A stretch of 64,000 nt of DNA from Candidatus Eiseniibacteriota bacterium (GTDB lineage Bacteria > Eisenbacteria > RBG-16-71-46 > JABDJR01). Below the pieces are notes generated by a model. That model searched no databases, had not been told where the DNA came from, and saw nothing but the letters and a program-made list of their open reading frames with translations. Of the stretch, positions 7,154 to 64,000 are shown piece after piece. The position numbers were made by a program, and so were the translations under genes. The number at the start of each line of letters is the position of its first letter. Within the stretch, counting starts at the first letter, position 1. The stretch lies in assembly GCA_963783375.1 (NCBI GenBank), contig CAWANH010000028.1, positions 1,856,001 through 1,920,000 on the forward strand, in the 5' to 3' direction.

Positions 7154-10100
7154 CTACCGGATGACGACTATTCTCCGGGTCGCTTCGAACGTCCCAGCCC
7201 GAAGCCGGTAGAGATAAACGCCGGCGGCGGCTGGTTGCCCCGAGCTGTCCGCTCCGTCCCAGGCGATCTCGTGCCTGCCCACGGGCAGGACCTCCCGGGC
7301 CAGGGTGCGCACCAGCCTCCCGGTGACGTCGAACACCTCCAGTGAGACCGCTGCCTCTGCCGGCAGGTCGAAGGCGATGCGGGAACCCGCTCGTAGCGGA
7401 TTGGGCATGGCTCCTCGCAGGGCGAATACGGTGGGAGTTACCGATCCTTCGCCCACTGCGGTGACCGACCCGGAGGATGCCGGGTCACTCTCGTTGCCTG
7501 CGTAGTCCAGGGCGGTGATCTTGTAGAAGACCGATCCCGGATCGGCGGGGGAGTCCTGCCAGGAGGTCGTAGCGGTCTCGTGAACCAGGGTTTCCGGGCC
7601 GGGTAGGAATCCGGGGTCGGTGGAGCGGTAGACCCGGAAGTATTGAAAGTCGGGTTCGGGAGCAGGATCCCAGGACAGGCCCACGGCACCCACGCTGAAG
7701 ATGGCAGCGAGCCCCTGGGGCACGCCGGGAGCGAGGTTGTCCACAGAATACCCGCTGTCGGGATGGGAATCAAAGAAGACCCCGGGTGTCGCCGTGAGTG
7801 CACTCACCATGAAGGTGGTCACGTAGAGGCCCGAGGCAATGGTGGAGTCCGCGAGGGTAGGAACGATCACGGCGTAGTCGTCCTCGACCCGGACCGGCAC
7901 CGTGGTGAGGAAATCCCATCCTGCGGCCTGCATCGTCGCGGCGTGCTGTGCGGTGGCATGGGAGAGGCCCGAGTACGAGGAAGGCACGAGCGTGGGGGAG
8001 GGACCGGACAGGCCCGGGTCGATCTTCCGGTAGACGGCGTACTCCACGATCTGCTCGGGATCGCCGATGAAGTCGTGAGCGCTACGACGCCACTCCACGC
8101 GGACCTGTCGGCCCTGGTCGTTGGGGACGTCGCCGACCGCGGTGATCTCACCGAAGTCGTTGAGCCACTCGGCGGTGACACCCGTGACCTTCGGGCTTTG
8201 CCCGACATACTCCAGGCTCGAGCGCCAGATCAAGTCGGTCCCGGACGCGCCGAACGTCGCCCATTCACCCGCAACGACGCTCTGGAAATTGAGACCGTCG
8301 TCGGCACTGAGCTCCCAAGAGATCCCCGGCGTTTCGGAAGGCACTACGCGGCCCTTCAGGATTACATCGTCGGCGCCGTCCACGGCCACGGACCGTGCAC
8401 TGTTGTTGGCCAGATCCGACTCATCCTGGAGAAATTGAACGATCTGGATGTCGTTATTGGAATTGGTCCCCACGAATGCGTGGTGGCCGGACACAGCGAT
8501 GCGGCGCGCTGTGGACCCCGGCAGATCCAGCACGCCGATCTCTCCGGGGTCTAGTGGGTCTGAGATGTCCAGAACATAAAGTAGAGACGTGCCAGAAGTG
8601 CCAAGAATAGCAACATCCCCGGTGACATCGACACCGGCGATATTCGCTCCAGGGTCAAATACCGACGTGCTTGACAGGGCCGCAGGATTGGTCGCGTCCA
8701 TGAGAACGAGACCGTAGCCGCCAACGAAGACATTGTCTCCGGCGACGGCGATTTGCCCGGCGCTGCATAGACACACGGAAATGTCGTCCAGCAAGACGAG
8801 CCCCGAGGGATTGGTGATATCAATGCTGTAGAGCGAAGTGCCGCTGGTAAAGAAGGCCGTGGCGCCGTCGATCTCAATGTCGCCGGGGAATCCGTTCAGG
8901 ATGATCAGAGAATCCAAGAGAACCGGTGCACCCGGGTTTGAGATGTCCAGCGCACCGAATCCGGTCCACTCTGCCCCGAAGTACGCGACCCCGCCGGCAA
9001 TGTTCACCGTTCGGGTAGTCCCCACAGTGGGATGCGTGGACAGTGGGACCGGGGAGGAGGTGTCGGATATGTCCACAAGGATGACTCCCGCTGTGTCCGC
9101 GGCGAGGGCGGCCAGATCTCCGCTCACAGACACGTCCCACACCTTGGGCGCGCCGGGCGGCACATAGTTGCCCACCTCCATCGGCGCGGCGGGATCAGTT
9201 ACGTCGAGAATGCGCAACCCACCGGTGGAGCTGGCCGAGTAGAGGAGATTCCCGGAGACTTCGACTCCGTCGGCTCTTCCGGTGAGGGAGAGCCCGGCCA
9301 CTGAAACCGGCGGAAAGGCGTCGGCCACGCGAATGATCCTGAGCCCCTCACCGCTGTCGGCCACGAAGGCGTGCTTTCCGGCGGTCTCGATGCCCGCCGC
9401 GGTTCCCGGGGTGTCCAGGGTCTGAACAATCGTGGGAGCGGCGGGATTGCTCACGTCCACGACCTGGAGGCCGTCGCTCCCGTCGGCGACAAGAACGCGG
9501 TCACCGTCGGCAACCACCTTGGAGGCGGAACCGGGAGTGTCTACGGTGCCCACGAGCGAGGGGCTCGTGGGATCGGTAACGTCGATGATCTGAAGCCCGG
9601 CGCTTCCGTCGGCCACATAAGCGTAGTTTCCATCCACAAAGACGCCGAAAGCGCTCCCGGGAGTATCGTAGGCTCCTTCCAGGGTCGGCACCGAGGGGTT
9701 GCTGATGTCGATGATCTGCAGTCCGGAATTGAAGTCGGCCACGAAGACAAGACTGCCCTCGACGAACAGGTCCGCCACCAGGTGCGCCGTATTGAAGGAT
9801 CCGAGCAGGGTGGGGCTGGTCGGATTGGAGAGATCAAGCACTTCGATGCCGGAGAGACCTACGCCGATGACGGCCAGGTTACCTAGGACGGCAACCTTGT
9901 CGGGAGTGGTTGCGGGGTTGTAGAACCCGACCAGGGTCGGTGTGGTCGGGTCGGCAATATCAACCACGAGGAGGCCCGGGGTCCCATCGGCAAGATAGGC
10001 ATAATCGCCGTACAGGGCCACATCCTGGACGTTGTTTGCCGGTCCGTAGGTTCCGGCGATGCCAGGAGCCGTGAGGTCGGAGACGTCGATTACCTGAAGA

Positions 10101-35085: not shown

Positions 35086-35700
35086 ATGCGCATCTATCGA
35101 ATCCTCTCCGTCCTGGTTCTTGGGCTCCTCTGGCTGGGGACGCATCCTTCGGTTTCCCCCGCCGCGCCCCCCCAGCCCACCTTCGGCACCGCGGTGGTCG
35201 ACGGGGATCCGGGGGAGTGGAACCTCGCCACCGACTTCTTCGCCGACATGCACCGAGCCGGAAAGCCGGGCAAGCCGCTGGAGTCGAAGCTCTACCTCCG
35301 CTACGACTGTTACACGGGGACCCTGTTCGCGCTCATCCTCACCGAGCAGGGGGTGGTGGGCTACATCGACACCTCCGCGGTGACCGGCTGGATCGCCATC
35401 GACAGCCAGAACAACAAGGTGGTGAACGAGGTGGCGGGGAACGACGGCACCCCCCCCGATTTCGCGTGGATCGACCAGGGCTTCGACGCCGACTCGACCC
35501 ACGTCCACGGGTACGAGGCCTCGTTCCACCTGGCCGAGGGCACCTACGTGATCATCGGCCACGTCGACGTCTACGACGGCGGGGCACAGACCTCGGCCAC
35601 CGATGGGTTTCCCGGGAGCGGCGCGGACCTGGTGCTGGATTGCGGAAACGTGCCCACCGAGCCCACGACATGGTCGCGGATGAAGCAGCTCTATCGCTGA
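35086..35700 (+). CDS. Secreted hypothetical protein with C-terminal VPTEPTTWSRMKQLYR tail
   Basis: Signal peptide, 'VDGDPGEW' DOMON/CBM9-like start, RBS AGGAG. Confidence 0.75.
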   Translation: MRIYRILSVLVLGLLWLGTHPSVSPAAPPQPTFGTAVVDGDPGEWNLATDFFADMHRAGKPGKPLESKLYLRYDCYTGTLFALILTEQGVVGYIDTSAVTGWIAIDSQNNKVVNEVAGNDGTPPDFAWIDQGFDADSTHVHGYEASFHLAEGTYVIIGHVDVYDGGAQTSATDGFPGSGADLVLDCGNVPTEPTTWSRMKQLYR

Positions 35701-36058
35701 ACCGGATCGCTGAGCCGCGGCTCGCGCGGTTCGGTCCCCGATTGTTTTCGGGAGGGCCCGGAGTCTCTGTGCTCCGGGCCCTTTCCGTATCCGGCGGATC
35801 CGGCCGGACCCCGGGGGGGAAGACGGTCCGGGCGCGCCCCGAATCCGACTGAATCGATCGGGTTTACGCGATCCCCGGGGCGACTCGGACCTTCCTCGCC
35901 CGTGTTCCGCCGACTTGTGCGAAAATACCCCGTCACTCGACCAGCGCTCGCCCACGACCGGGCTCGGCCAGAACCGGTTCCCCGGGCGGGCGACACGACT
36001 TCGAACGGCCGGACCCGGGCGGTCCGGCTTCCACGGCGCGGCGGGCGCGGGAGAAACC

Positions 36059-37222
36059 ATGATCAACGAACTCTATACGAAGGAGCAGGTGGAACTCAGG
36101 GAACGGGCCCGGCATCTGGCCGAGACGGTGATGCGACCGGTGGCGGCCAAACACGACGTCGAGCAGACCTATCCCTGGGAGGTGCAAAAGGAGATCGCGG
36201 CGGCCGGTTTTTCCGGCACCTGGATTCCCAAGGAGTTCGGCGGCGCTGGGGGTGGGGTGCTCGATCTCTGCCTCGTGGTGGAGGAATTCTCCCGGGCCTG
36301 CGGCGGCATGGGCGTGGGCTACGCGGTGAACGCCCTCGGTTCCTTCCCCATCCTGGTCGGAGGGACCGAGGAACAGAAGAAGCGTTGGCTGCCGGGGATC
36401 GCCGCGGGCGAGAAGCTCATCGCCTTCGGACTCTCGGAAAAGGAATCGGGGTCCGACGCGGGCTCGATGAAGACCACCGCGGTTCGCGAGGGCGATGAGT
36501 TCGTCCTGAACGGCGAGAAGAAGTGGAACACCGGCGGAGCGGTGGCTTCCTACAACACGGTCTTCGCGGTGACCCAGCCGGGGCGTGGCGCGCGGGGGAT
36601 CTCCGCGCTGGTGGTGGGGGCGGACACCCCCGGCTACCGGGTGGGGAAGCACGAGGACAAGATGGGGATCCGCTGCGTTCCGGTGAACGAGATCCACTTC
36701 GAGGACTGCCGGGTGCCGGCGGAGAACCTCCTGGGCGGGGTCGAGGGACAGGGGTTCAAGCAGGCGATGAAGACCCTGGACCGGGCGCGGCCGGGAGTGG
36801 CCGCCCAGGCCGTGGGTCTGGCCCAGGGGGCGTTGGACCTGGCCATCGAGTACACCGGGAAGCGCCAGCAGTTCGGCCAGTCCGTCAGCTCCTTCCAGGG
36901 CATCCAGTGGATGCTCTCGGACATGGCCACCCAGATCGAGGCCGCACGCATGCTGGTCCACACCGCGGCCCGGACCATCGACTCGGGCAGCGCGAACATC
37001 ACCAGGATCTCGGCCATGTGCAAGCTCATGGCCACCGACACCGCGATGAAGGTGACCACCGACGCGGTCCAGCTCTTCGGCGGGTACGGCTACTGCAAGG
37101 ACTACCCGATCGAGAAGTACATGCGCGACGCCAAGATCACCCAGATCTACGAGGGCACGAACCAGATCCAGCGGTTGGTGATCGCGCGGAGCCTGCTCCG
37201 GGAGGCGGCGGCGGCCCACTAG
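36059..37222 (+). CDS. Short-chain acyl-CoA (butyryl-CoA-like) dehydrogenase
   Basis: FGLSEKESGSD, LNGEKKW, KMGIR, RQQFGQ, GGYGYCKDYPIEKYMRDAKITQIYEGTNQIQR. Confidence 0.93.
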   Translation: MINELYTKEQVELRERARHLAETVMRPVAAKHDVEQTYPWEVQKEIAAAGFSGTWIPKEFGGAGGGVLDLCLVVEEFSRACGGMGVGYAVNALGSFPILVGGTEEQKKRWLPGIAAGEKLIAFGLSEKESGSDAGSMKTTAVREGDEFVLNGEKKWNTGGAVASYNTVFAVTQPGRGARGISALVVGADTPGYRVGKHEDKMGIRCVPVNEIHFEDCRVPAENLLGGVEGQGFKQAMKTLDRARPGVAAQAVGLAQGALDLAIEYTGKRQQFGQSVSSFQGIQWMLSDMATQIEAARMLVHTAARTIDSGSANITRISAMCKLMATDTAMKVTTDAVQLFGGYGYCKDYPIEKYMRDAKITQIYEGTNQIQRLVIARSLLREAAAAH

Positions 37223-37443
37223 CCCGCCCACGGGGGAATCATCCGGAACGGTGGTTTTCCGATCCCCGGGCCGGTCGGATGTTCGATCCGCATTTTCGAG
37301 GAGGGGCGGCGCTCGCCGCCGCCCCTCCCACTCGATTATGCTGGTGAGGTCCCCTCCGTCGCGCCGAAGCACCGGGCCCGGCCAGATCCGGTTTTTCGAC
37401 CGGCGGCCAGTCGTTCGTACCCCGAACCGGATCGAGAGTCGCC

Positions 37444-40400
37444 ATGCAGCCCGGCACCCGTCAGGGTTCCTACACCGTTCTCGGCAAGCTCGGCGAGGGG
37501 GGGATGGGGGAGGTCTACCTTGCCCGGGATGATCGCCTGGGCCGCGAGGTCGCCCTCAAGCTCCTCCCCCGCGAGTTCGTGCGGGATCCTCATCGCCTCG
37601 CCCTCTTCCGCCGCGAGGCCCTCACCCTGGCCGCCCTCAATCACCCCCAGATCGCGGTGATCCACGGCCTGGAAGAGCCGGAGCCGGGGACCCTCTTCCT
37701 CGTCCTGGAGCGGGTGGAGGGGGAGTCGCTCGCCCAGCGCCTGGCCCGCGGCGCCCTGCCGCCGGCCGAGGCCCTGGCGGTGGCGGCCAAGGTGGCCGAG
37801 GCCCTCGAGGCCGCCCATGAGCGGGGGGTGATTCACCGCGACCTGAAGCCGGGGAACATCATGCTGGGCCCCCGGGGGGTGGTGAAGGTGCTGGACTTCG
37901 GCCTGGCCCGCCCGGTGGACCCCCGGGCGCGGGCGGGTGGGGACGCGGTCGGCGCCGGTCGGTCATCGCCGGACACCGCCGGAGGCGGCCCCGCGCTCGA
38001 TCCCGACGCGCCCACCCTGGTTCCCGGCGAGCCCGCGTCGAGCCCGGACGCGCCCACCCTGGTTCCCGGCGAGCCCGCGTCGAGCCCGGACGCGCCCACC
38101 CTGGCGGGGGGTGGCGCGGGGGCCGGCCCCGACGCCCTCACCTTGCCCGGCCCTCCCGCACCGGATGCCGAGGCCCCCGCTTCCGCCGGCGGGGAGGCTC
38201 CGGCGGGCGATGCGGTCACCCTGCCGTCCTCCGGGGGTGAGGGAGCGTCGACGCCCCCGTCCTCCGTCCCTTCCAGCCTGGAGGAATTTGCCTCCAACCC
38301 GCTCGACGACGACCAGGTGGTGGGGACGCCGGGGTACATGAGCCCGGAGCAGATCCGCGCCGAGCCCCAGGACGAACGGACCGACGTCTTCGCCTTCGGA
38401 TGCGTGCTCTACGAGTGCCTGACCGGCAAGCGCCCGTTCCCCGGGCGGAGCCTCGGGGAGGTGTTCACCGCCACCCTGGAGCGGACGCCGGACGCCTCAC
38501 TCCTCCCCGCCGCCGTCCCGCCCCGCGTCCGGAAACTGGTGGAGCACTGCCTCGAGAAGCGCACGGCCGATCGACCGGCGGCGATCCGGGAAGCGCGGCT
38601 GGTTCTCGAGGACGTTCTGGGAATCCGGCGGGCATCGGCGCTCCGGAGCGGCGAGGCGCAGGCCGAGGTCCCGAACAACCTTCCCGGAACGGGGTCGAGC
38701 TTCGTGGGGCGGGAGCGGGAGCTCGCCGCGTGCCGGGAGATGATCGGGGCCACCCGGCTTCTCACCCTCACCGGGGTGCCGGGGAGCGGAAAGACCCGGG
38801 TCGCGCTGCAGCTGGCCTCGCTCTCTCTCGCCGAGTACCCGGACGGGGTGTGGTTCGTCGATCTGGGCCCGGTCACCGAACCCGAACGGGCGATCCTGAC
38901 CCTGGGCCTGGCCATGGGGCTCCGCGAGGAGTCCGGGAAGTCCCTCTCCGAGAGCCTCACCCAGCAGCTCGCCGGGCGCCGGGTGCTGGTGGTGCTCGAC
39001 ACCTGCGAGCACCTGCTCGCCGCCGCCGCCGACCTTGCCGGCCGGATCATCGCCGCGTCCCCGGAGACGCGGGTGATCGCCACCAGCCGCGAGGTTCTGG
39101 GAGTGCCCGGGGAGAGGCCCTTCGTGGTTCCCACCCTGGCCGTCCCCCCCGCCTCGCCGACGGACAGCGCGGCCGGGGTGGGCGGGTTCGAGGCGGTGCG
39201 GCTCTTCGTGGAGCGGGCGGAGCTGGTCCGCCCCGGGTTCGTACTCGACGACGCAAACGCCCACCCGGTGGCCGAGATCTGTCGCCGTCTGGACGGGATT
39301 CCCCTGGCCATCGAACTCGCCGCCGCCCGGGTCCGGGTGCTGGGGGTGGAGGACATCCAGGCACGACTCGACGACCGGTTCCGTCTCCTCACCGGCGGCG
39401 GGCGCGGGGCGGCGGCGCGGCAGCAGACCCTCCGCGCGGCCATCCAGTGGAGCTACGACCAGCTCGCTCCCCTCGAGCAGCAGTTCTTCCGGGCGATGTC
39501 GGTCTTTTCGGGGGGTTGGAACCTGGAAGCGGCCACCGCGACGTGGGAGGAGAACGCCGACGAGTTCGAGGTGCTGGACCTCATGACCCGTCTGGTGGAG
39601 AAGTCCCTGGCCGGGGTCGAGAAGGGGGCGGACGGAGCCAACCGCTTCCGCTACCTGGAGACCGTGCGCCAGTACGCGGCGGAGATCCTCGCCCCGACGG
39701 AGGAGAACGCCCCGGTCCGAAACCGCCACCTCGACCACTACCTGGCCCTCGCCGAAACCGGGGAGAAGGAGCTGGTGGGGAAGAACCAGAAGACCTGGTT
39801 CACCCGCCTCGACCCCGAGCACCTGAATTTCCTGGCCGCCCTGGCCTGGGCGGAGGGCGAGGGGAGCGAGCCGGTCCGGGCGCTCCGACTCGCCGGGGCG
39901 GCCGCCCGGTTCTGGTCGGCGCGCGGCCAGTACGAGCTGGGCCGGCGCGCCCTGGCCGACGCCCTGGCCGGCGAGGGCACCGCCGGGCCGATTCCGGAAC
40001 GCGCGAAGGCGCTGGTGAGGTTGGGCGGCATGGCGCTCTATCGCGGGGATTATGAGGGCGCGACCGAACCGATTCGGGAGAGCCTGGAGGTGTACCGGGC
40101 GCTCGGCGACGTGAACGGAGCCACCCGGGCTCTGAGCGGGCTGGCCACCGTGGCCACCTATCAGGGGGACTACGCCGCCGCGCGGGGCCACAACCAGGAA
40201 GCGCTGGCCGCCTACCGCGCCCAGGGAAACGATCGCGGCGCGGCGGTGACCCTGCACAACCTGGGCTTTCTCTCCCTGTGCGAGGGGGACCCCGCCTCCG
40301 CCGTCGACTTCTACACCCAGGCGCTCGCCCTGCTTCGAACGACCGGAGATCTGAAGCAGGTGGCCCTCACCCTGGCCGACCTCGCCGTGGCCTCGGTCCG

Positions 40401-40755
40401 CCTGGAACAGGACGAGACCGCCGCCGCCCAGGCTCTGGCCAGCCTGGCCATCGTCCAGGAACTGGCCTCGGCGCGGGAAGGCGCCTACGCCCTGGAAGGG
40501 ACCGCGGAGCTGGCGGTGATGAGGGGGGATGCGGTTCGGGGGGCGCGGTTTCTGGGAGCGGCGCGGCGACTGCGGGAGGAGACCGGCGCCGCCCTCTCCC
40601 CGGCGGAGGAACGCCAGCAATCCGTTCTCCTGGAGCGAATGAGGGGCATTTCCGGGGAGGCGGGCCTCGATGCCGGATTGGCCGAGGGGGCGGCCCTGAG
40701 GCTCGACGCCGCGGTGGCCGAGGCTACGGACTTTCTGCAGGCTTCCGGGGGCTGA
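37444..40755 (+). CDS. Ser/Thr protein kinase - STAND/NB-ARC ATPase - TPR protein (PknK-like)
   Basis: GEGGMGEVY, VALK, HRDLKPGN, DFG, GTPGYMSPE; SFVGRERE, GVPGSGKT, LDTCEH, LDGIPLAIELAAAR; TPR-like helices. Confidence 0.9.
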   Translation: MQPGTRQGSYTVLGKLGEGGMGEVYLARDDRLGREVALKLLPREFVRDPHRLALFRREALTLAALNHPQIAVIHGLEEPEPGTLFLVLERVEGESLAQRLARGALPPAEALAVAAKVAEALEAAHERGVIHRDLKPGNIMLGPRGVVKVLDFGLARPVDPRARAGGDAVGAGRSSPDTAGGGPALDPDAPTLVPGEPASSPDAPTLVPGEPASSPDAPTLAGGGAGAGPDALTLPGPPAPDAEAPASAGGEAPAGDAVTLPSSGGEGASTPPSSVPSSLEEFASNPLDDDQVVGTPGYMSPEQIRAEPQDERTDVFAFGCVLYECLTGKRPFPGRSLGEVFTATLERTPDASLLPAAVPPRVRKLVEHCLEKRTADRPAAIREARLVLEDVLGIRRASALRSGEAQAEVPNNLPGTGSSFVGRERELAACREMIGATRLLTLTGVPGSGKTRVALQLASLSLAEYPDGVWFVDLGPVTEPERAILTLGLAMGLREESGKSLSESLTQQLAGRRVLVVLDTCEHLLAAAADLAGRIIAASPETRVIATSREVLGVPGERPFVVPTLAVPPASPTDSAAGVGGFEAVRLFVERAELVRPGFVLDDANAHPVAEICRRLDGIPLAIELAAARVRVLGVEDIQARLDDRFRLLTGGGRGAAARQQTLRAAIQWSYDQLAPLEQQFFRAMSVFSGGWNLEAATATWEENADEFEVLDLMTRLVEKSLAGVEKGADGANRFRYLETVRQYAAEILAPTEENAPVRNRHLDHYLALAETGEKELVGKNQKTWFTRLDPEHLNFLAALAWAEGEGSEPVRALRLAGAAARFWSARGQYELGRRALADALAGEGTAGPIPERAKALVRLGGMALYRGDYEGATEPIRESLEVYRALGDVNGATRALSGLATVATYQGDYAAARGHNQEALAAYRAQGNDRGAAVTLHNLGFLSLCEGDPASAVDFYTQALALLRTTGDLKQVALTLADLAVASVRLEQDETAAAQALASLAIVQELASAREGAYALEGTAELAVMRGDAVRGARFLGAARRLREETGAALSPAEERQQSVLLERMRGISGEAGLDAGLAEGAALRLDAAVAEATDFLQASGG
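38002..38104 (+). repeat. 42-bp tandem repeat (about 2.5 copies) inside the kinase activation loop
   Basis: CC(C/G)GACGCGCCCACCCTGGTTCCCGGCGAGCCCGCGTCGAGC encodes PDAPTLVPGEPASS twice, then PDAPTL. Confidence 0.9.
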
Positions 40756-41066
40756 CCCGGACATTCACCCCCGCCGCTTCCGGAAGACAGGTCCCCGACC
40801 CCGGGAACTCAAGTTTGGATGCAATCAGCTGAGATTCAGGGGTTGCATTCCACGCCTTCCAAGCGTACAATTTAAATCTCAATTCCCCCGCATTCCAGGA
40901 GCTCGGAAAGCGGTTCGTACAAGACGCTGAAGAACCTGCGTGATCGACTCCCCCCCGATCCCGTCGAGCTTTCCGTGTGTACACAGCACAGAGATCTTCC
41001 AGAATCGCCCGGCAAGAGGGTTGTCGGCGATGGGCGGAAGCACGCATCACGATGATGAGGAACTCC

Positions 41067-41753
41067 ATGAGAAAAACCGCGATTGTCTTCGGCTTGCTGG
41101 TCTTTCTGCTCGGGGTGGGGGGCGCGTGCGTGGCGGACGCGGCAACCCTCCTGGTGGACTACGTGGGATATGACTACGAGTCCCCCGATCCCGACTCCAC
41201 GCTCTTCGGTGAAGCGGGAAGCGGGTACAAGGAAGTGGGGAACGTGCCCAACCTCTTTGCTCCCCTTGCGCCCGACACCGCGAACTACGAGTACACCTAC
41301 TACATCAGCGGTCTCACGCAATCGAATCGCACGGTGGTCGGCGGCTACGTGATCGTCGACTACTCGGGTCCCGGCACCTTCGAGGTGTTCGAGGACTCGA
41401 AGACCACCGGAACCGATCCCGTCTTCGGGGTCTATCCGCCCAACGGGACCGCCCCGAGCAGCTTCACCGACGGGACGTTGTTCCTGGAGGGCGCGATCAG
41501 CTCCTTCCAGGTCGTGTTCAGCACCACCTCCAACTCGGGAAGCTACAACGCCCAGTTCGACGTGACGGGGGGCTCCCAATATGGGAACATCCCGGCCAAC
41601 CAGCGTATGGGGTGGTCGTTCGCTGGCATCACCGGAAACGAGCTGAACAAGCCCGCCGGGTATGAGCACCAGGTTGACGGACAGATCTTCCTGAATGAAC
41701 CGGTCCCGACCCAGAAGACGTCGTGGGGCAAAATCAAGAGCATCTATCGCTGA
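41067..41753 (+). CDS. Secreted surface protein with C-terminal PVPTQKTSWGKIKSIYR tail
   Basis: Signal peptide; Tyr/Thr/Gly-rich beta domain; paralogous to the next gene (PPNGTAPSSFTDGT vs PPNANVPSTFTDGT). Confidence 0.8.
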   Translation: MRKTAIVFGLLVFLLGVGGACVADAATLLVDYVGYDYESPDPDSTLFGEAGSGYKEVGNVPNLFAPLAPDTANYEYTYYISGLTQSNRTVVGGYVIVDYSGPGTFEVFEDSKTTGTDPVFGVYPPNGTAPSSFTDGTLFLEGAISSFQVVFSTTSNSGSYNAQFDVTGGSQYGNIPANQRMGWSFAGITGNELNKPAGYEHQVDGQIFLNEPVPTQKTSWGKIKSIYR

Positions 41754-41794
41754 GGCAGGCGCCGACCATGATCGTCGAGCGCACGGGGGTTAGC

Positions 41795-42496
41795 ATGAGA
41801 ATCTTCTACATCGCGCTTCTGGTATCCCTGGTGGTCGTGGCCCTGCCGGCCACGGTTCTGGCGGGTGCCGCCATCGACTGGGATCCGATCTACACCTGGG
41901 AAGCGGGGGCTACCGCCACCAACTCCCCTCTCGGCGGGGAGCTCAAGGGAGTGGGGGTCATCAGCAGCTTCGACGTGCCCTTCCAGGACCTGAACGCCGC
42001 CGATCCCGATACCGAGTACACCATCTACATCTACGGTTTGATCTCCCAGGGTACGGTCACCTCCGGAATTCCCGCCTACACCTTCTACACCACGACCTAC
42101 ACCGGGGGGACGATCGAGATCTACCAGGGGACGCCGCGGAACTCCGTCTTCGACCCCAATCCGCCGAACGCGAACGTGCCGTCCACCTTTACCGACGGCA
42201 CGCCGATCCTCGTGGGGAGCTTCACCTCCTTCTACACCCAGACCAACAACTTCACCCAGTTCATGACCGGGAACATGGAGGGGAACATCCTCTGGACCGG
42301 GGGCACCCTGTTCAACCGCACCTACAACACCGGCGGCGAGCCCTGCCCGGGGCTCTTCACCGGAGGGGTGACCTGGAATCCCGCCGTCCTCATCCCCGGC
42401 TACATCTTCCGGCACGACGGGAAGATCGATCTCAACTGCCCGACCCCGGCCGAACGCAGCACCTGGGGCGAAATCAAGACCCACTACGACAACTGA
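41795..42496 (+). CDS. Secreted surface protein with C-terminal PTPAERSTWGEIKTHYDN tail
   Basis: Signal peptide; paralog of the upstream gene (EYT.YI.GL, H.DG.I). Confidence 0.8.
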   Translation: MRIFYIALLVSLVVVALPATVLAGAAIDWDPIYTWEAGATATNSPLGGELKGVGVISSFDVPFQDLNAADPDTEYTIYIYGLISQGTVTSGIPAYTFYTTTYTGGTIEIYQGTPRNSVFDPNPPNANVPSTFTDGTPILVGSFTSFYTQTNNFTQFMTGNMEGNILWTGGTLFNRTYNTGGEPCPGLFTGGVTWNPAVLIPGYIFRHDGKIDLNCPTPAERSTWGEIKTHYDN

Positions 42497-42523
42497 CCCC
42501 CTCCCGAGCGGCGGGATGATCTT

Positions 42524-42555
42524 CCGGGGCGGCGCAGGCCGCCCCGGTTATTTTT
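42524..42555 (+). terminator. Rho-independent terminator
   Basis: CCGGGGCGGC-GCAG-GCCGCCCCGG followed by TTATTTTT. Confidence 0.8.
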
Positions 42556-42730
42556 GCCCTCCGGGGGCGCTTCCGCCCCGGCACGTCGTCCACTCCGGTC
42601 CGATTGTCCTCCCCCCCGCCGGCGTGCTACCTTCGCCGCCCCCCTCTCCCGCCGAACGACCGGATCCGGCCGTGTTCGGAGCGCCGGGCGGCGCCTTCCC
42701 GACCGGCCTCCAACCAGCGAGGATTCGAAC

Positions 42731-44110
42731 GTGCATGGCTCAACTTCCACTCGGGCGCGTCGCGCGCTCGTCGGCTCCGTGCTCGTCGGGGCGGCGCTCC
42801 TGCTCCGGCCCGGAGCCCCCTCCGCCGGCATGGACGCCGGCGCCGTCACCGAACACACCCTGGCCAACGGAATGAAGGTGCTCCTGTGGGAGGATCACAC
42901 CATCCCCAACCTGGCCGTGTACACGTTCTGGAAGGTGGGCAGCCGGAACGAGGCCCCTGGGATAACCGGCCTGGCCCACTTCTTCGAGCACATGATGTTC
43001 AACGGCTCGAAGCACTATCCCCCCGGGGAGTTCGATCGCACCATGGAAGCGGCGGGAGGGGCGAACAACGCCTATACCTCCAACGACGTCACCGTGTACC
43101 AGGATTGGGTTCCCGCCTCCGCCCTGGAACTCACCCTGGGTCTCGAGCAGGACCGGATCGGCTGGCTCGCCGTGGACCCCGGCGTGGTGGAGAGCGAGCG
43201 GGGAGTGGTCCTGAGCGAACGGAACCGCTCGGTCGAGGACGACAACCAGGCGCTGATGTGGGAACAGCTGGGCGCGGCGGCGTTCATGGCTCATCCCTAT
43301 TCGTGGCCGGTGATCGGTTGGCGGAGCGACATCGAGAACTGGCGCCAGGGAGACGTGGAAACGTTCTTCCACACCTGGTACACGCCCAACAACGCGGTCA
43401 TGGTGATCTGCGGCGCCTTCGACACCCCCCGGCTCCTGGAGATGCTCGACCGGACGGTGGGAAGCGTCCCCGCCCGGGAGATCCCCCGCGGAGTGGTGAC
43501 GGTGGAGCCCCCCCAGACCGGAGAACGGCGGGTGGAATTGCGGAAGGATGCCTCGGCGGCGAGTGTCCTGGCCGGATGGCACGTCCCCGCCACCTCCGAT
43601 TCCGACAGCCGGGTCCTGGAGTTGATCGACCTGATGCTGACCTCCGGTGAATCGAGCCGGCTCTACCGGAGGCTGGTGGACCGGGAACCCCTCGCCCTCG
43701 GCGTGTGGTCGGGAACCGACGACAACTTCGACCCCGGGCTGTTCCAGATCCTGGTCCAGAACCGGGACGGGATCGCCGGGCCCCAGGTGGAAGGTCCCCT
43801 GTACGAGGAGCTGGAGCGTTTGAAGACCGAGCCGGTGGGGGATGAGGAGCTTCAGAAAGCCAAGAACATGCTCCTGGCCGGCTTCTACCGGAGCATGGCC
43901 ACCCTGAGCGGGCGGGCCCAGGCGCTCGGCACCTACGCCCTCTTCCACGGCGACTGGAACAAGCTCTTCACCGCGGTGAACGAATACGAGGCGATCACCC
44001 CCGCGGACGTCATGCGGGTGGCGGACAGGTACTTCACGCCGGAGAACCGGACCGTGGTGACCCTGATCCCCGAGGCCGCAGCGGGAGAGGAGGCGAACGA
44101 TGCGCGCTGA
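42731..44110 (+). CDS. M16B zinc peptidase, catalytic subunit
   Basis: GLAHFFEHMMFNGS (HxxEH), NAYT, 'ERGVVLSER', HPY.WPVIGW. Confidence 0.9.
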   Translation: MHGSTSTRARRALVGSVLVGAALLLRPGAPSAGMDAGAVTEHTLANGMKVLLWEDHTIPNLAVYTFWKVGSRNEAPGITGLAHFFEHMMFNGSKHYPPGEFDRTMEAAGGANNAYTSNDVTVYQDWVPASALELTLGLEQDRIGWLAVDPGVVESERGVVLSERNRSVEDDNQALMWEQLGAAAFMAHPYSWPVIGWRSDIENWRQGDVETFFHTWYTPNNAVMVICGAFDTPRLLEMLDRTVGSVPAREIPRGVVTVEPPQTGERRVELRKDASAASVLAGWHVPATSDSDSRVLELIDLMLTSGESSRLYRRLVDREPLALGVWSGTDDNFDPGLFQILVQNRDGIAGPQVEGPLYEELERLKTEPVGDEELQKAKNMLLAGFYRSMATLSGRAQALGTYALFHGDWNKLFTAVNEYEAITPADVMRVADRYFTPENRTVVTLIPEAAAGEEANDAR

Positions 44111-45530
44111 CCGTGGACGGCATTCGCAGTTCCAGACGGCGGCCCGGCTCTCGGCGGTGGTGGTCGCAGCCGCGATCCTGGGCGGGGCGCCATCCGTCCG
44201 CGCGGGTGAGGATCTCCGGCTTCCCGACTACCGGGTCGTGAAGCTGGACAACGGCCTTTCCCTCCAGGTGGTGCGCCAGGCCGCCGTCCCCCTCGTCACC
44301 TTCGAGGTCTGGATCCGGGCCGGAGCCGCCGCCGACCCGGCCGGAAAGGAAGGGCTGGCCGAGCTCACCGCCGAGAGCCTGCGGAAGGGCTCGGGAGATC
44401 TCGACGCCGCCGCCTTCGCCGGGGCGGTGGACTTTCTGGGAGCGGACTTCGGGACCTCGGTCGACCACGACCGGACCCGGGTGCGGCTGAGCCTGTTGGC
44501 CAAGGATTTCGACCGGGGACTCGAGCTCCTGGCCGACGCCCTGCTTCGTCCCGCCCTGGACTCCGGAGAGATCGAGAAGCTCTCCGGGCAGCTCGCCGAC
44601 GGCGTGGGCCAGGCCAAGGACAACCCGCGCTACGTGTTGGGCGACTACTTCGACGCCTTCCTATACGGCGACCATCCCTACGGGAACCCGGTGGGGGGCA
44701 CCGAGACCTCGCTCCGCGCGCTCGGCCCCGACGACGTGCGCGCCTTCTACCGGGGCAACTACGGAGCGAACCGCGCCCTGATCACGGTGTGCGGAGATCT
44801 GGACCCCGCCGCCGCCGAGGCCGCGGTGCGGAAGGCCTTCGCGTCCATGCCGCGGGCGACGGGACCGGCGCCGGTGATCCCCGACCCGACGCCGCCGGCG
44901 GCGAACCGGGTGCTCCTGGTCAACAAGGCCGACACCCCCCAGACCTGGTTCCAGATCGGATCCCTGGGGCCCGCCTACGACGATCCCGACTACGCCGCCG
45001 CCGAGCTGGTGCGGACGATCTTCGGCGGGAGGTTCACGAGCTGGCTCAACACCAAGCTCCGCATCGAGTCGGGGCTCACCTACGGGGCACGGTATCGTCT
45101 GGACCGCCGGGCCGAGGCCGGGACCGCCTACATGATGAGCTTCACCGCCACCGAGCACACCAAGGAGGCGCTGGATCTGGCTCTCGCCCAGCTCGACCGG
45201 CTCCACGAGGAGGGGATCGGGGAGACGGACCTGAGCTCGGCCAAGGCCTACGTCAAGGGGCAGACCCCCTACGGCTACGAGACCGCGGCAAGCGTGGCCT
45301 ACGCGGTGAGCGAGCTCACCTTCTACGGGGTGGACCGGTCGAGGGTGGACGACCTCTTCCGCCGGATCGACGGGGTGACCCCCGAGGACTGCCGGCGGGT
45401 CATCGACGCCTACTTCCGGCGCGACCATCTGGTCTTCGCCGCGGTGGGAGTCCGGGACTCGGTGGCCGGGGTGCTCGAATCCTACGGCGAGCTCAAGGTG
45501 CGGGAGAACTCCGACCCCGGGTTCCGATGA
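44100..45530 (+). CDS. M16B peptidase partner subunit (no HxxEH)
   Basis: LDNGL, 'GKEGLAELTA', HPYG, 'SWLNTKLRIESGLTYG' R/Y motif. Confidence 0.88.
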   Translation: MRADRGRHSQFQTAARLSAVVVAAAILGGAPSVRAGEDLRLPDYRVVKLDNGLSLQVVRQAAVPLVTFEVWIRAGAAADPAGKEGLAELTAESLRKGSGDLDAAAFAGAVDFLGADFGTSVDHDRTRVRLSLLAKDFDRGLELLADALLRPALDSGEIEKLSGQLADGVGQAKDNPRYVLGDYFDAFLYGDHPYGNPVGGTETSLRALGPDDVRAFYRGNYGANRALITVCGDLDPAAAEAAVRKAFASMPRATGPAPVIPDPTPPAANRVLLVNKADTPQTWFQIGSLGPAYDDPDYAAAELVRTIFGGRFTSWLNTKLRIESGLTYGARYRLDRRAEAGTAYMMSFTATEHTKEALDLALAQLDRLHEEGIGETDLSSAKAYVKGQTPYGYETAASVAYAVSELTFYGVDRSRVDDLFRRIDGVTPEDCRRVIDAYFRRDHLVFAAVGVRDSVAGVLESYGELKVRENSDPGFR

Positions 45531-62595: not shown

Positions 62596-62973
62596 TCACG
62601 CTGGATTTCCCGCCAGACCCGTAGCCACGTGGCGGTTGATGTCGATCAAGGCGGTCAGCTTCTCCCGGCTCGGGGAGGCGAGGAGATCGAAGGTCCGCCG
62701 GTCCACGAAGGCGCTCAGCCTCAAGAGATCGATCCGGAGATCGACCGGGAGCGCGTGGTCCGGACGGGTCAGCTCGGTCTGGAAGAAGGTCCAGAGCTTC
62801 TGATTGAGGGACAGCGCCTCCCGGAGGCGCGGACCCCGCTCGGGATCGCTCCAGGCCTTGAGGCAGTTTTCCATGAGCCGCGCCGTCTTGTAGAGGGCGG
62901 CGGCCTCCAGGCTCCGGTTGGAATCGGTGGACTTGTTGCCTTGCTCGTAGGCGGCCAGCGGATCATGCAACAT
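62596..62973 (-). CDS. flaF: Flagellar biosynthesis regulator FlaF
   Basis: 'AY......R.LEA.AL', ALSLNQKLWT, 'LP..LR..L..LS.FV', LIDINR..A.GL. Confidence 0.88.
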   Translation of the reverse strand: MLHDPLAAYEQGNKSTDSNRSLEAAALYKTARLMENCLKAWSDPERGPRLREALSLNQKLWTFFQTELTRPDHALPVDLRIDLLRLSAFVDRRTFDLLASPSREKLTALIDINRHVATGLAGNPA

Positions 62974-63352
62974 GGTCGGTCAGCTCTTTCTCGTGTTGGA
63001 TGAGGCGTTTCGCGCTCTTCAGGGCCTGGTAGAGCCGGCCGGAGTCGGCCAGCCCGGAGATTTCATCGAGCTCGGGAGCCAGGAGCGGCACGGCCTGGCG
63101 AAGGTGGTCGACGAGGACCCGAAACGTGTCCCGATGCTCTTTGGTTCCTTCCGGATCGACGTAGGCGAGCTGGAGCGCCAAGTACACCCATTCGCACGCG
63201 GTGTGGACGGTCCGAGGACTCAGGATGTCCACTTCCCGAAGCACCGGCACCTCGTTCTCGATCAGGATCTCGGAGCGGGCGTCACCATTTCGGATCACCG
63301 CTCCGCCGAGGATCAAGCGTTCGCCGGGTTTCAGGCTCATTCGAAGGGGCAT
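62963..63352 (-). CDS. flbT: Flagellar regulator FlbT
   Basis: MPLRMSLKPGERLILGGAVIRNGD, 'LRE.DIL', 'Y.ALK..K.LI..E'. Confidence 0.9.
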   Translation of the reverse strand: MPLRMSLKPGERLILGGAVIRNGDARSEILIENEVPVLREVDILSPRTVHTACEWVYLALQLAYVDPEGTKEHRDTFRVLVDHLRQAVPLLAPELDEISGLADSGRLYQALKSAKRLIQHEKELTDHVA

Positions 63353-63426
63353 CTTGGCGCTCCTAACTCTCGGTCATTGGGACGTTTGCGGACCCGGCCG
63401 GCGGCGGCCGGGGTTGGCCGGAGGGT

Positions 63427-63455
63427 GGGACCGGCGGTTCGGAACCGCCGGTCCC
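63427..63455 (-). terminator. Strong hairpin downstream of flagellin
   Basis: 13-bp stem GGGACCGGCGGTT / AACCGCCGGTCCC. Confidence 0.55.
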
Positions 63456-63543
63456 CGTCCGGTCGCGGCCTTGCGACTCAGGCGCCGGGAGTGTCCCCGA
63501 CCCTCCGTATCTGCGCGGAGAGCCGGTGGACGCTTCCCCGGAG

Positions 63544-64000
63544 CTAAAAGAGACGCAGGACGCTCTGCTGGGCCTGGTTCGAGAGGCTCAGGGCCACGAT
63601 TCCCAGCTGCTGCCTGGTCTGCAGGGCCAACATGTTGGCTCCCTCTTCGTTCGGATCGGCGAGGGTCAGGTTGTCCGCGCCGGTGGTGAGGGAGTTGATC
63701 ATGTTCTTGGTGAACTCCTGACGGGTGTTCACCACGCCGAGGCCCGAGGACAGGGTCTGGGACTTGGACCGGAGCGTGGTCAGAGCCGCGTCCAGGTCGG
63801 TCTCCGCCGCGGTGATATCGGTGTCGCCGGCGAAGCTGTTCGCCGCGGCATCGATGCTCAGCCCGGTGGTGCTGCCGTCGAACCCGGAGATCGTGATGTT
63901 GCTCGATCCGTCCTCGTTGAAGTTCACGACGAGGTCGCTGGAGTCCAGGAGGTTCGTCCCGTTGTACGAGGCGTCGCTCGCGAGCTGGTCGATCTGGGTC
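63544..64000 (-). CDS. fliC: Flagellin, C-terminal part (start lies beyond the window end)
   Basis: QIDQLASDASYNGTNLL...LTLADPNEEGANMLALQTRQQLG..ALSLSNQAQQSVLRLF. Confidence 0.93.
   Translation of the reverse strand, partial: TQIDQLASDASYNGTNLLDSSDLVVNFNEDGSSNITISGFDGSTTGLSIDAAANSFAGDTDITAAETDLDAALTTLRSKSQTLSSGLGVVNTRQEFTKNMINSLTTGADNLTLADPNEEGANMLALQTRQQLGIVALSLSNQAQQSVLRLF

Follow-up and report, generated by a model that had tools for sequence, protein, structure and literature searches.

Three proteins encoded in a 64,000-nucleotide stretch of the genome of a Candidatus Eiseniibacteriota bacterium (contig CAWANH010000028.1, positions 1,856,001 to 1,920,000; hereafter the window) end in the same short sequence, which is a real, uncatalogued and portable C-terminal tag of several uncultured diderm phyla. 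This tail lies outside both the C-terminal domain (CTD) families of type IX secretion systems (T9SS) and the tripartite sorting signals by their defining features. We regard it as highly probable that the tail is a sorting or addressing signal of some kind. As to what reads it, the account that we favour, at a probability of roughly 0.5, is that the reader is a T9SS-like system, of which the tail would be a non-CTD mini-signal.

An earlier reading made from the letters alone (the sequence-only reading) had placed the ends of the three tail-bearing open reading frames (ORFs) at 35700, 41753 and 42496, and all three were confirmed. The corresponding features are as follows.

35086..35700, + strand: protein 1 (204 aa), with a signal peptide, an unnamed 'choice-of-anchor'-type domain and the tail; its 113 homologues have varied C-terminal tags
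35650..35697, + strand: tail copy 1, VPTEPTTWSRMKQLYR, scoring 35.3 bits on the tail hidden Markov model (HMM)
41067..41753, + strand: protein 2 (228 aa), with a signal peptide, a predicted 8-stranded soluble beta-barrel and the tail
41703..41750, + strand: tail copy 2, VPTQKTSWGKIKSIYR, predicted to form an extended linker and then a helix at model residues 195-201
41768 or 41795..42496, + strand: protein 3, a paralogue of protein 2, with a signal peptide, a domain and the tail
42443..42493, + strand: tail copy 3, TPAERSTWGEIKTHYDN, the C-terminal end of protein 3
42524..42547, + strand: terminator-like hairpin (10 G-C pairs and a T run, by consensus match only) at the end of the two-gene unit that encodes proteins 2 and 3

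Abundance and anatomy of the tail in the source genome

The source genome (G000; 4.73 Mb, 69% GC, 97% complete) gave about 3,820 called genes; gene calls, signal peptides and transmembrane (TM) segments were obtained with simple heuristics and not with Prodigal or SignalP. A count across this proteome with the tail HMM found 69 genes that carry the tail no more than 15 aa from the end, and in a six-frame scan of the genome with [TS]W[GS]x[IVLM]K, 72 of the 90 matches lay fewer than 20 residues from a stop. This clustering near stops, together with the near-terminal tails found by the HMM, indicates that the tail is not a chance occurrence. The copy counts are slightly inflated because the small contigs C9, C11, C14 and C24 repeat stretches of contigs C1 and C28 (C11 duplicates protein 2); four of the 69 genes are such duplicates, leaving about 65 distinct. 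Several genes of this genome are also frameshifted, as is typical of long-read assembly. The 69 tails gave the consensus [PS]-[VT]-P-[VT]-E-x-T-[TS]-W-[GS]-x-[ILV]-K-x-x-Y-x-stop, in which W (67 tails), G/S (68) and K (68) are near-invariant, Y/F is present in 64 and the stop falls most commonly nine residues after the W.

The bodies of the 69 genes fall into 44 single-linkage families, in which protein 1 is a singleton and proteins 2 and 3 belong together; the tail is thus modular and not confined to one protein family, as the sequence-only reading had supposed. A signal peptide was detected in 63 of the 69; when the same lenient rule was applied to 1,000 background genes, 36.8% had one. The six tail genes without a signal peptide are short, frameshifted or contig-end fragments. 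Proteins 1, 2 and 3 each start with a basic/hydrophobic segment resembling a signal peptide and have no further TM stretch, and no C-terminal TM segment was found in the tail proteins of this genome. The median length of these proteins is 220 aa, against 718 aa for CTD proteins, and 64 of 68 tails have a net charge between +1 and +4 from the Trp to the end. When 60 tails were compared with Pfam and NCBIfam, none matched any model at E<=10, in keeping with the view that the signal had not been assigned to a known sorting model.

Proteins 1, 2 and 3 themselves gave no match in a Pfam/NCBIfam scan, and the ESM Atlas returned clusters of hypothetical proteins only. In the AlphaFold2 model of protein 2 (58 sequences; predicted local distance difference test, pLDDT, 93) the body is a beta-barrel, and an extended linker leads from it to a helix of seven residues across the W..Y segment. 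A fold search with this model retrieved allene oxide cyclase (AOC)/dirigent-type barrels at Z about 8 (best 8.5), a common barrel that is not distinctive and offers no functional lead. The protein 2 family is distantly like the PEP-CTERM protein PepA (paralogue L056 against NF033554, floc_PepA, 4e-07, below the cut-off). The tail pattern was matched in 116 of 120 protein 2 homologues and close variants were present in the other four, a degree of retention that shows the tail to be under selection.

The tail is bipartite, with a proximal X-[PAGS]-[VT]-[ED] element followed by a predicted two-turn helix that has W, I/L, K and Y on one face. The near-invariant Lys lies beside W, I/L and Y on this face (W0, Phi3, K4 and Y7), and the mean hydrophobic moment is 0.34 at 100 degrees but 0.44 at 170 degrees. 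Of the short amphipathic-helix tag originally proposed, the helix agrees with the structure prediction, whereas the amphipathic character has little support, given these moments and the Lys on the apolar face. A modest helical moment, with W, Phi, K and Y on one face, is more in keeping with a binding epitope than with a helix that seeks the membrane.

Interchange with other sorting signals and relation to known systems

The domain of protein 1 has 113 homologues, and these proved to have a variety of ends: 29 have the tail and 25 a variant with L or F for the W (54 together), 20 have LPPT[DS] followed by a TM segment, 11 have VPEx and a TM segment of the PEP/PEF-CTERM type (some of them in records titled Chloroflexi or Bathyarchaeota), seven have another C-terminal TM segment, six an Ig-like end, two a T9SS CTD, and 13 none or are fragments. 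As PEP/PEF-CTERM, LPPT[DS]-TM or T9SS CTD tags replace the tail on these homologues, it behaves as a sorting signal. Among the 59 passengers scanned were NCBIfam choice-of-anchor domains E, V, W and X above cut-off and F just below it, as well as PepA-like, cupredoxin, lamin-tail, X25, Big_5 and beta-helix domains, although most had no family. In the source genome five tail proteins share paralogous bodies with CTD proteins, and no gene carries both signals (69 tail genes, 88 CTD genes). A CTD gene is the immediate neighbour of 10 of the 69 tail genes, against a background of about 4% at a distance of one gene, there being no excess at five genes. In its many copies, its unrelated exported carriers, its C-terminal position and its interchange with other anchors, the tail has the general properties of C-terminal sorting signals.

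The proximal element lies at W-7 in Eisenbacteria and at W-12 in Poribacteria, where a variant tail keeps T/L-A-V-[ED]-P five residues further from the Trp; since it is kept despite the differing distance, it is conserved independently. In one tail/CTD pair of paralogues (C28:590966/591728) the V-P-V-E of the tail, which comes after the domain that they share, stands in register with T-G-V-G in the CTD linker. The motif [TV][GAP][VI] precedes 49 of the 88 CTDs, in 42 of these 17-21 aa before PNP, and [TV][AGP]V is found in 43 of 96 CTD linkers but in only 8-9% of random windows. Measured PorU sites, as given in PMC4560394, have the form X/(GSA)(VLI), e.g. T/ATE, T/SIA and N/GVE. At the level of sequence, the proximal element resembles both the PorU cleavage sites and the CTD linker motif, and Ala occupies the +1 position of the putative site in 16 of 26 Poribacteria-type matches.

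Among the closest known counterparts is the T9SS type A CTD (TIGR04183/PF18962, and the FlgD_ig-type PF13860 in these phyla, with PorV as shuttle and PorU as sortase). Both signals combine a Sec signal with a C-terminal signal lacking a TM helix, both serve many unrelated cargoes with the same passenger domains in genomes that encode the machinery, and both have a small-residue/Val linker motif in the same register and, close to the end, a Lys that is conserved and a basic terminal residue. However, the tail has 16-21 aa and not about 80, is predicted to be helical with no beta-sandwich and no motif B (PNP), often has Pro after the putative cut, is found on cargo three times smaller, matches no model, and has occasional N-terminal, internal and tandem copies. 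CTD types A-C, the roles of PorV and PorU and a conserved Lys that contacts PorV are described in PMC12398890. According to PMC11969387, the short CTDs of Prevotella intermedia (40-55 aa, three-stranded sheets with motifs B, D and E) are minimised T9SS signals that are still cleaved and glycosylated, which makes them akin to a short tail; the tail differs in having none of these motifs. The beta fold of 40-80 or more aa with motifs B, D and E, by which type A and short CTDs are recognised, is replaced in the AlphaFold2 model by linker and helix.

The tripartite signals (PEP-CTERM/exosortase, LPXTG/sortase, PGF/PEF-CTERM, GlyGly-CTERM, MYXO-CTERM and WGxxGxxG-CTERM, NF038039) are, like the tail, short, portable, C-terminal, present in many copies per genome and interchangeable on choice-of-anchor domains, and they share its basic end and, in VPEP, its V-P start. 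In contrast to them, the tail has no hydrophobic TM segment, so that the combination of motif, TM helix and basic cluster is lacking; it has no NCBIfam match; and exosortase is absent from several tail-rich genomes, against the strict co-occurrence expected of PEP-CTERM. The portion of bioRxiv 10.1101/2023.06.07.544157 accessible to us, which treats tripartite signals including the orphan WGxxGxxG-CTERM, mentions neither Eisenbacteria nor Poribacteria. Retained non-covalent surface tethers are exemplified by type B CTDs with their PorP/SprF carriers and by dockerin-cohesin pairs. These are folded domains of 70-200 or more aa, and type B CTDs have a cognate neighbouring gene, whereas the tail is a linear motif with no conserved neighbour. 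The literature searched contained no description of the tail motif, supplements and most subscription papers being outside its scope.

Occurrence across phyla and non-terminal copies

The tail is carried by 59 of 61 relatives and by 143 of the 151 genomes of the phylum (tail counts per genome, best 54 scored). All eight blanks are in family f9, whose genomes have 0-5 copies each. The tail protein most often kept in f9 belongs to one conserved family (L185-L187, L189, L069, L124), which we take to be lamin-tail-like; its member in the source genome (C3:207433-208362) has an apparent frameshift before the tail. In a small separate phylum the tail was present in nine of nine genomes. A pattern scan of species genomes gave at least 120 stretches, and among the matches listed all were in frame at the C-terminus, with record titles that were mostly Eisenbacteria but also Krumholzibacteria, Latescibacteria, Poribacteria (3) and single others. 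The Eisenbacteria profile had no match in Poribacteria at 3e-5, and a separate pattern was needed for their longer variant, [TL]-[AP]-V-[ED]-P-x-[GD]-K-L-[AT]-T-T-W-[GA]-x-[LIV]-K-x(2-4)-stop, which was found 135, 119 and 120 times in three genomes compared with 0, 0 and 3 times for the reversed pattern.

Searching of cluster representatives gave 1,134 clusters at 50% identity that passed E 0.001; among the best 150, 149 were true and all had a terminal copy. The one false positive (P0122, the second match) consisted of Pro/Thr/Glu repeats and was dropped. With a metagenome pattern that did not require a stop, the distance from the Trp to a stop was 8-18 residues in 121 of 123 matches, and it was 27 and 33 in the remaining two.

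The strictly C-terminal position that had been anticipated is thus seen in nearly all proteins, the exceptions being one N-terminal copy in the source genome and N-terminal, internal and tandem copies in an NTF2/SnoaL-like family, some members of which have 2-4 tandem C-terminal copies. Members of this family (P0121, P0135, P0164, P0169, P0271-P0290) include a tandem array of lipoproteins at C28:945405-948916. With regard to the idea that this lipoprotein family might itself be the receptor of the tail, AlphaFold2 predicted its C-terminal tail helix with confidence (pLDDT 83-88) but not the N-terminal copy (46). The N-terminal copy of the source genome is in L060 (C28:1279421-1280092, - strand), which has a signal peptide, the tail motif at the N-terminus only, a Cys-rich hydrophobic C-terminal third and no NCBIfam match, and which we presume, by resemblance, to be like a bacteriocin-type precursor. 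Non-terminal copies may descend from duplications of domain and tail together.

Candidate machinery and alternative readings

The source genome encodes the set expected of a T9SS host: SprA over cut-off, 13 PorV-family matches (six over cut-off) and six C25 peptidases. One of these peptidases has a His/Cys dyad and is encoded directly upstream of the barrel that most resembles PorV (score on the PorV equivalog 116.8 bits, short of the cut-off of 250). There are also 96 TIGR04183 and 103 FlgD_ig matches. The tail proteins for their part have two features of T9SS cargo, a Sec signal (63/69, heuristic) and a C-terminal signal without a TM anchor. The porU-porV operon is kept in relatives and the pair is found in two Poribacteria. 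Among panel genomes, SprA-like ORFs were present in 28 of 29 and 11 of 12 (divergent in Poribacteria), the PorV family in 10 of 10 and C25 peptidases in six of six, Poribacteria included. The SprA-like ORFs of three Poribacteria (G160, G161, G162; L258-L261) are 2,100-2,260 aa long and split in G160, and 16-18 PorV-family genes (G160, G162) and 2-3 C25 peptidases with porU-porV adjacency were seen; in G162 two tail genes stand just upstream of sprA. A 2014 paper (PMC3909097) reports TIGR04183 domains in Poribacteria and Por secretion structural genes as not found. At C28:162231-177401 (- strand) of the source genome, next after a 5,056-aa CTD protein, comes a PorV-like barrel whose C-terminus carries a long extension; that several PorV paralogues adjoin single large CTD cargoes suggests dedicated carriers.

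The sequence-only reading had invoked an unidentified outer-membrane export or anchoring machine. The sorting role is upheld, but the machine is no longer wholly without a candidate, as the SprA/PorV/PorU set now leads, though unproven. We propose that the tail, a portable signal of 16 residues found on small proteins exported by Sec, would replace the usual 80-residue folded C-terminal domain, and that it is probably read by type-IX-like outer-membrane export (SprA, PorV-family barrels and a PorU-like peptidase) in Eisenbacteria, Poribacteria and neighbouring uncultured phyla. The protein would be exported by Sec to the periplasm, the W-G-x-Phi-K-x-x-Y helix would be bound by a PorV-family carrier at the SprA translocon, and cleavage at the proximal X/[PAGS]-[VT]-[ED] site would be the work of a PorU-like C25 peptidase, after which the cargo might be released or joined to surface glycan. 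Where Pro follows the bond, the cut could be slow or not be made at all, and the cargo may then remain with its carrier.

Several observations weigh against reading by a T9SS-like system. Characterised T9SS signals are all beta-stranded, whereas the tail is predicted to be helical. The residue after the putative scissile bond is Pro in 56 of the 69 tails of this genome and in 56 of 120 among the pattern matches listed, which departs from the GSA rule and from the Gly/Ala present at this position in 41 of 49 CTD linkers. In the NTF2/SnoaL-like family a copy stands right after the signal peptide in 10 of 22 members by regular expression (nearly all with a C-terminal copy too) and between duplicated domains in 3 of 22, well-conserved copies for which a cleaved terminal export signal has no need, and there are lipoproteins with the tail (C28:946861-948916). 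The co-occurrence of tail and T9SS genes is one-way and weak: T9SS-like genes are near-universal in tail-bearing lineages, and family f9 genomes keep SprA, PorV and 15-54 CTDs yet have few or no tails, a contrast that is uninformative for the reader because these genes persist there. The tail counts stop short of the SprA-bearing outgroup phyla Bacteroidota, KSB1 and Zixibacteria, and the phylum of G163, with two genomes only, is unusable as a negative control. No SprA match was obtained in G164 (2.2 Mb, 5 tails). The GldM and GldN models matched nothing in five genomes, in a search that had no positive control match and did not extend to GldK and GldL. The neighbourhoods of 128 foreign tail loci (mostly 0.6-3 kb) held passenger families only and no conserved machinery gene. 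No tail gene adjoined any of 30 PorV loci, and a PorV tree (the top 30 of about 110 panel matches and nine own paralogues) singled out no tail-specific clade. Complex prediction for the porU-adjacent PorV with the tail scored 0.01, which counts neither way.

The non-terminal copies keep alive the main rival explanation, which we consider possible but less likely: that the tail is a docking peptide, retained uncleaved, which binds an abundant envelope receptor non-covalently and so plugs small modules onto the envelope, the route of export perhaps being a different one. The receptor could be a surface scaffold, an outer-membrane barrel or a periplasmic protein, by analogy with dockerin-cohesin or with a type B CTD on its PorP carrier. 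Such a peptide would suit the tandem copies and the combined N- and C-terminal copies of the NTF2-like family, where the N-terminal copy stands at the position of the lipoprotein Cys of relatives, and also the protein with an N-terminal copy only, the single face formed by W, Phi, K and Y, the Pro after the putative cut site and the small size of the cargo. However, non-terminal copies are rare (0 of the 123 metagenome matches lay more than 33 aa from a stop, and a terminal copy was present in all 149 true matches of the best 150) and can be explained as leftovers of domain-plus-tail duplication, as two-domain members have internal copies. Docking also leaves unexplained why the proximal element is conserved separately and stands in register with CTD linkers, and a receptor gene was not found in tail-gene neighbourhoods.

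Direct binding to lipid or lipopolysaccharide by a short basic aromatic helix lying in the plane of the membrane, in effect a degenerate PEP-CTERM with neither a membrane span nor a protein reader, would account for the net positive charge, for the likeness of VP[TV]E to VPEP and for the replacement of TM anchors by the tail on homologues. It is unlikely in view of the weak helical hydrophobic moment, the Lys amid the apolar face and a length of only two helical turns, and the near-invariant W, G/S and K with their fixed spacing argue instead for sequence-specific recognition. We think it very improbable that the tail marks proteins in the periplasm for quality control or degradation and that a tail-specific protease or chaperone reads it. 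It is short, terminal and without a membrane anchor, on Sec substrates that include lipoproteins, but its passengers are typical surface modules with surface-anchored homologues, and the 59 passengers scanned included no ordinary housekeeping protein of the periplasm.

That an exosortase or other inner-membrane sorting protease acts on the tail, as on PEP-CTERM, seems extremely improbable. The genome does have an exosortase, encoded with an EpsI-like gene in an exopolysaccharide locus (C29:319499-344975) that also holds what we take to be a PrsK/PrsR-like pair; the proximal motif resembles VPEP, and one tail gene adjoins a PEP-CTERM gene. But the tail offers no TM segment to an intramembrane protease, and the enzyme has four canonical PEP-CTERM targets of its own, encoded elsewhere than in this locus, so that three C-terminal sorting systems coexist in this genome. 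Exosortase (TIGR04178) had no match in six of 22 panel genomes, all of them tail-rich, rhomboid and CPBP-type sortases being outside the profile search. These six genomes include G014 (99% complete, 87 tails), G021 (87 tails) and all three Poribacteria, and they largely refute the exosortase reading.

On balance we are inclined to think that the tail represents one of two things. It would be either a second class of signal, helical and of 16 residues, which a T9SS-like export system without a motor uses in four or more uncultured phyla and which ranks with the most frequent secretion tags of Poribacteria and Eisenbacteria, or else an entirely new surface-display system of peptide and receptor that has a reader of its own. 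In either case no dedicated tag for outer-membrane export or surface docking known from diderm bacteria would be shorter, and the tail would be a candidate tool for surface display. In the papers examined, short C-terminal sorting signals all depend on a TM helix together with an intramembrane sortase, and T9SS signals are all made of beta-strands; as the tail has neither, its reader, whatever that is, adds to the known grammar by which proteins are sorted. The tail addresses 1-2% of the proteome in several abundant uncultured phyla (soil, sediment, sponge-associated Poribacteria), nearly all of it hypothetical proteins that are thereby marked as surface or secreted, and makes testable how T9SS-like SprA/PorV/PorU sets work outside Bacteroidota, including Poribacteria.

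The window genes between protein 1 and proteins 2 and 3 are unrelated: an acyl-CoA dehydrogenase gene and a gene (37444-40755) for a 1,103-aa protein comprising a Ser/Thr kinase, an AAA/STAND ATPase and TPR repeats, whose kinase insert contains a short internal repeat rich in Pro. Past the terminator, two secreted M16 family peptidase subunits (42779-45530) are encoded directly downstream of proteins 2 and 3, and no link between them and the tail was found. Terminator-like hairpins were found at three sites, compared with 4.5 in shuffles, and an RNA look-up for 40900-42600 listed no holder. The gene at 7154-10021 (- strand) encodes a choice-of-anchor B-like protein that has a T9SS type A CTD, and at 62596-64000 there are what are presumably a flagellin-like gene and two small flagellar regulator-like genes.

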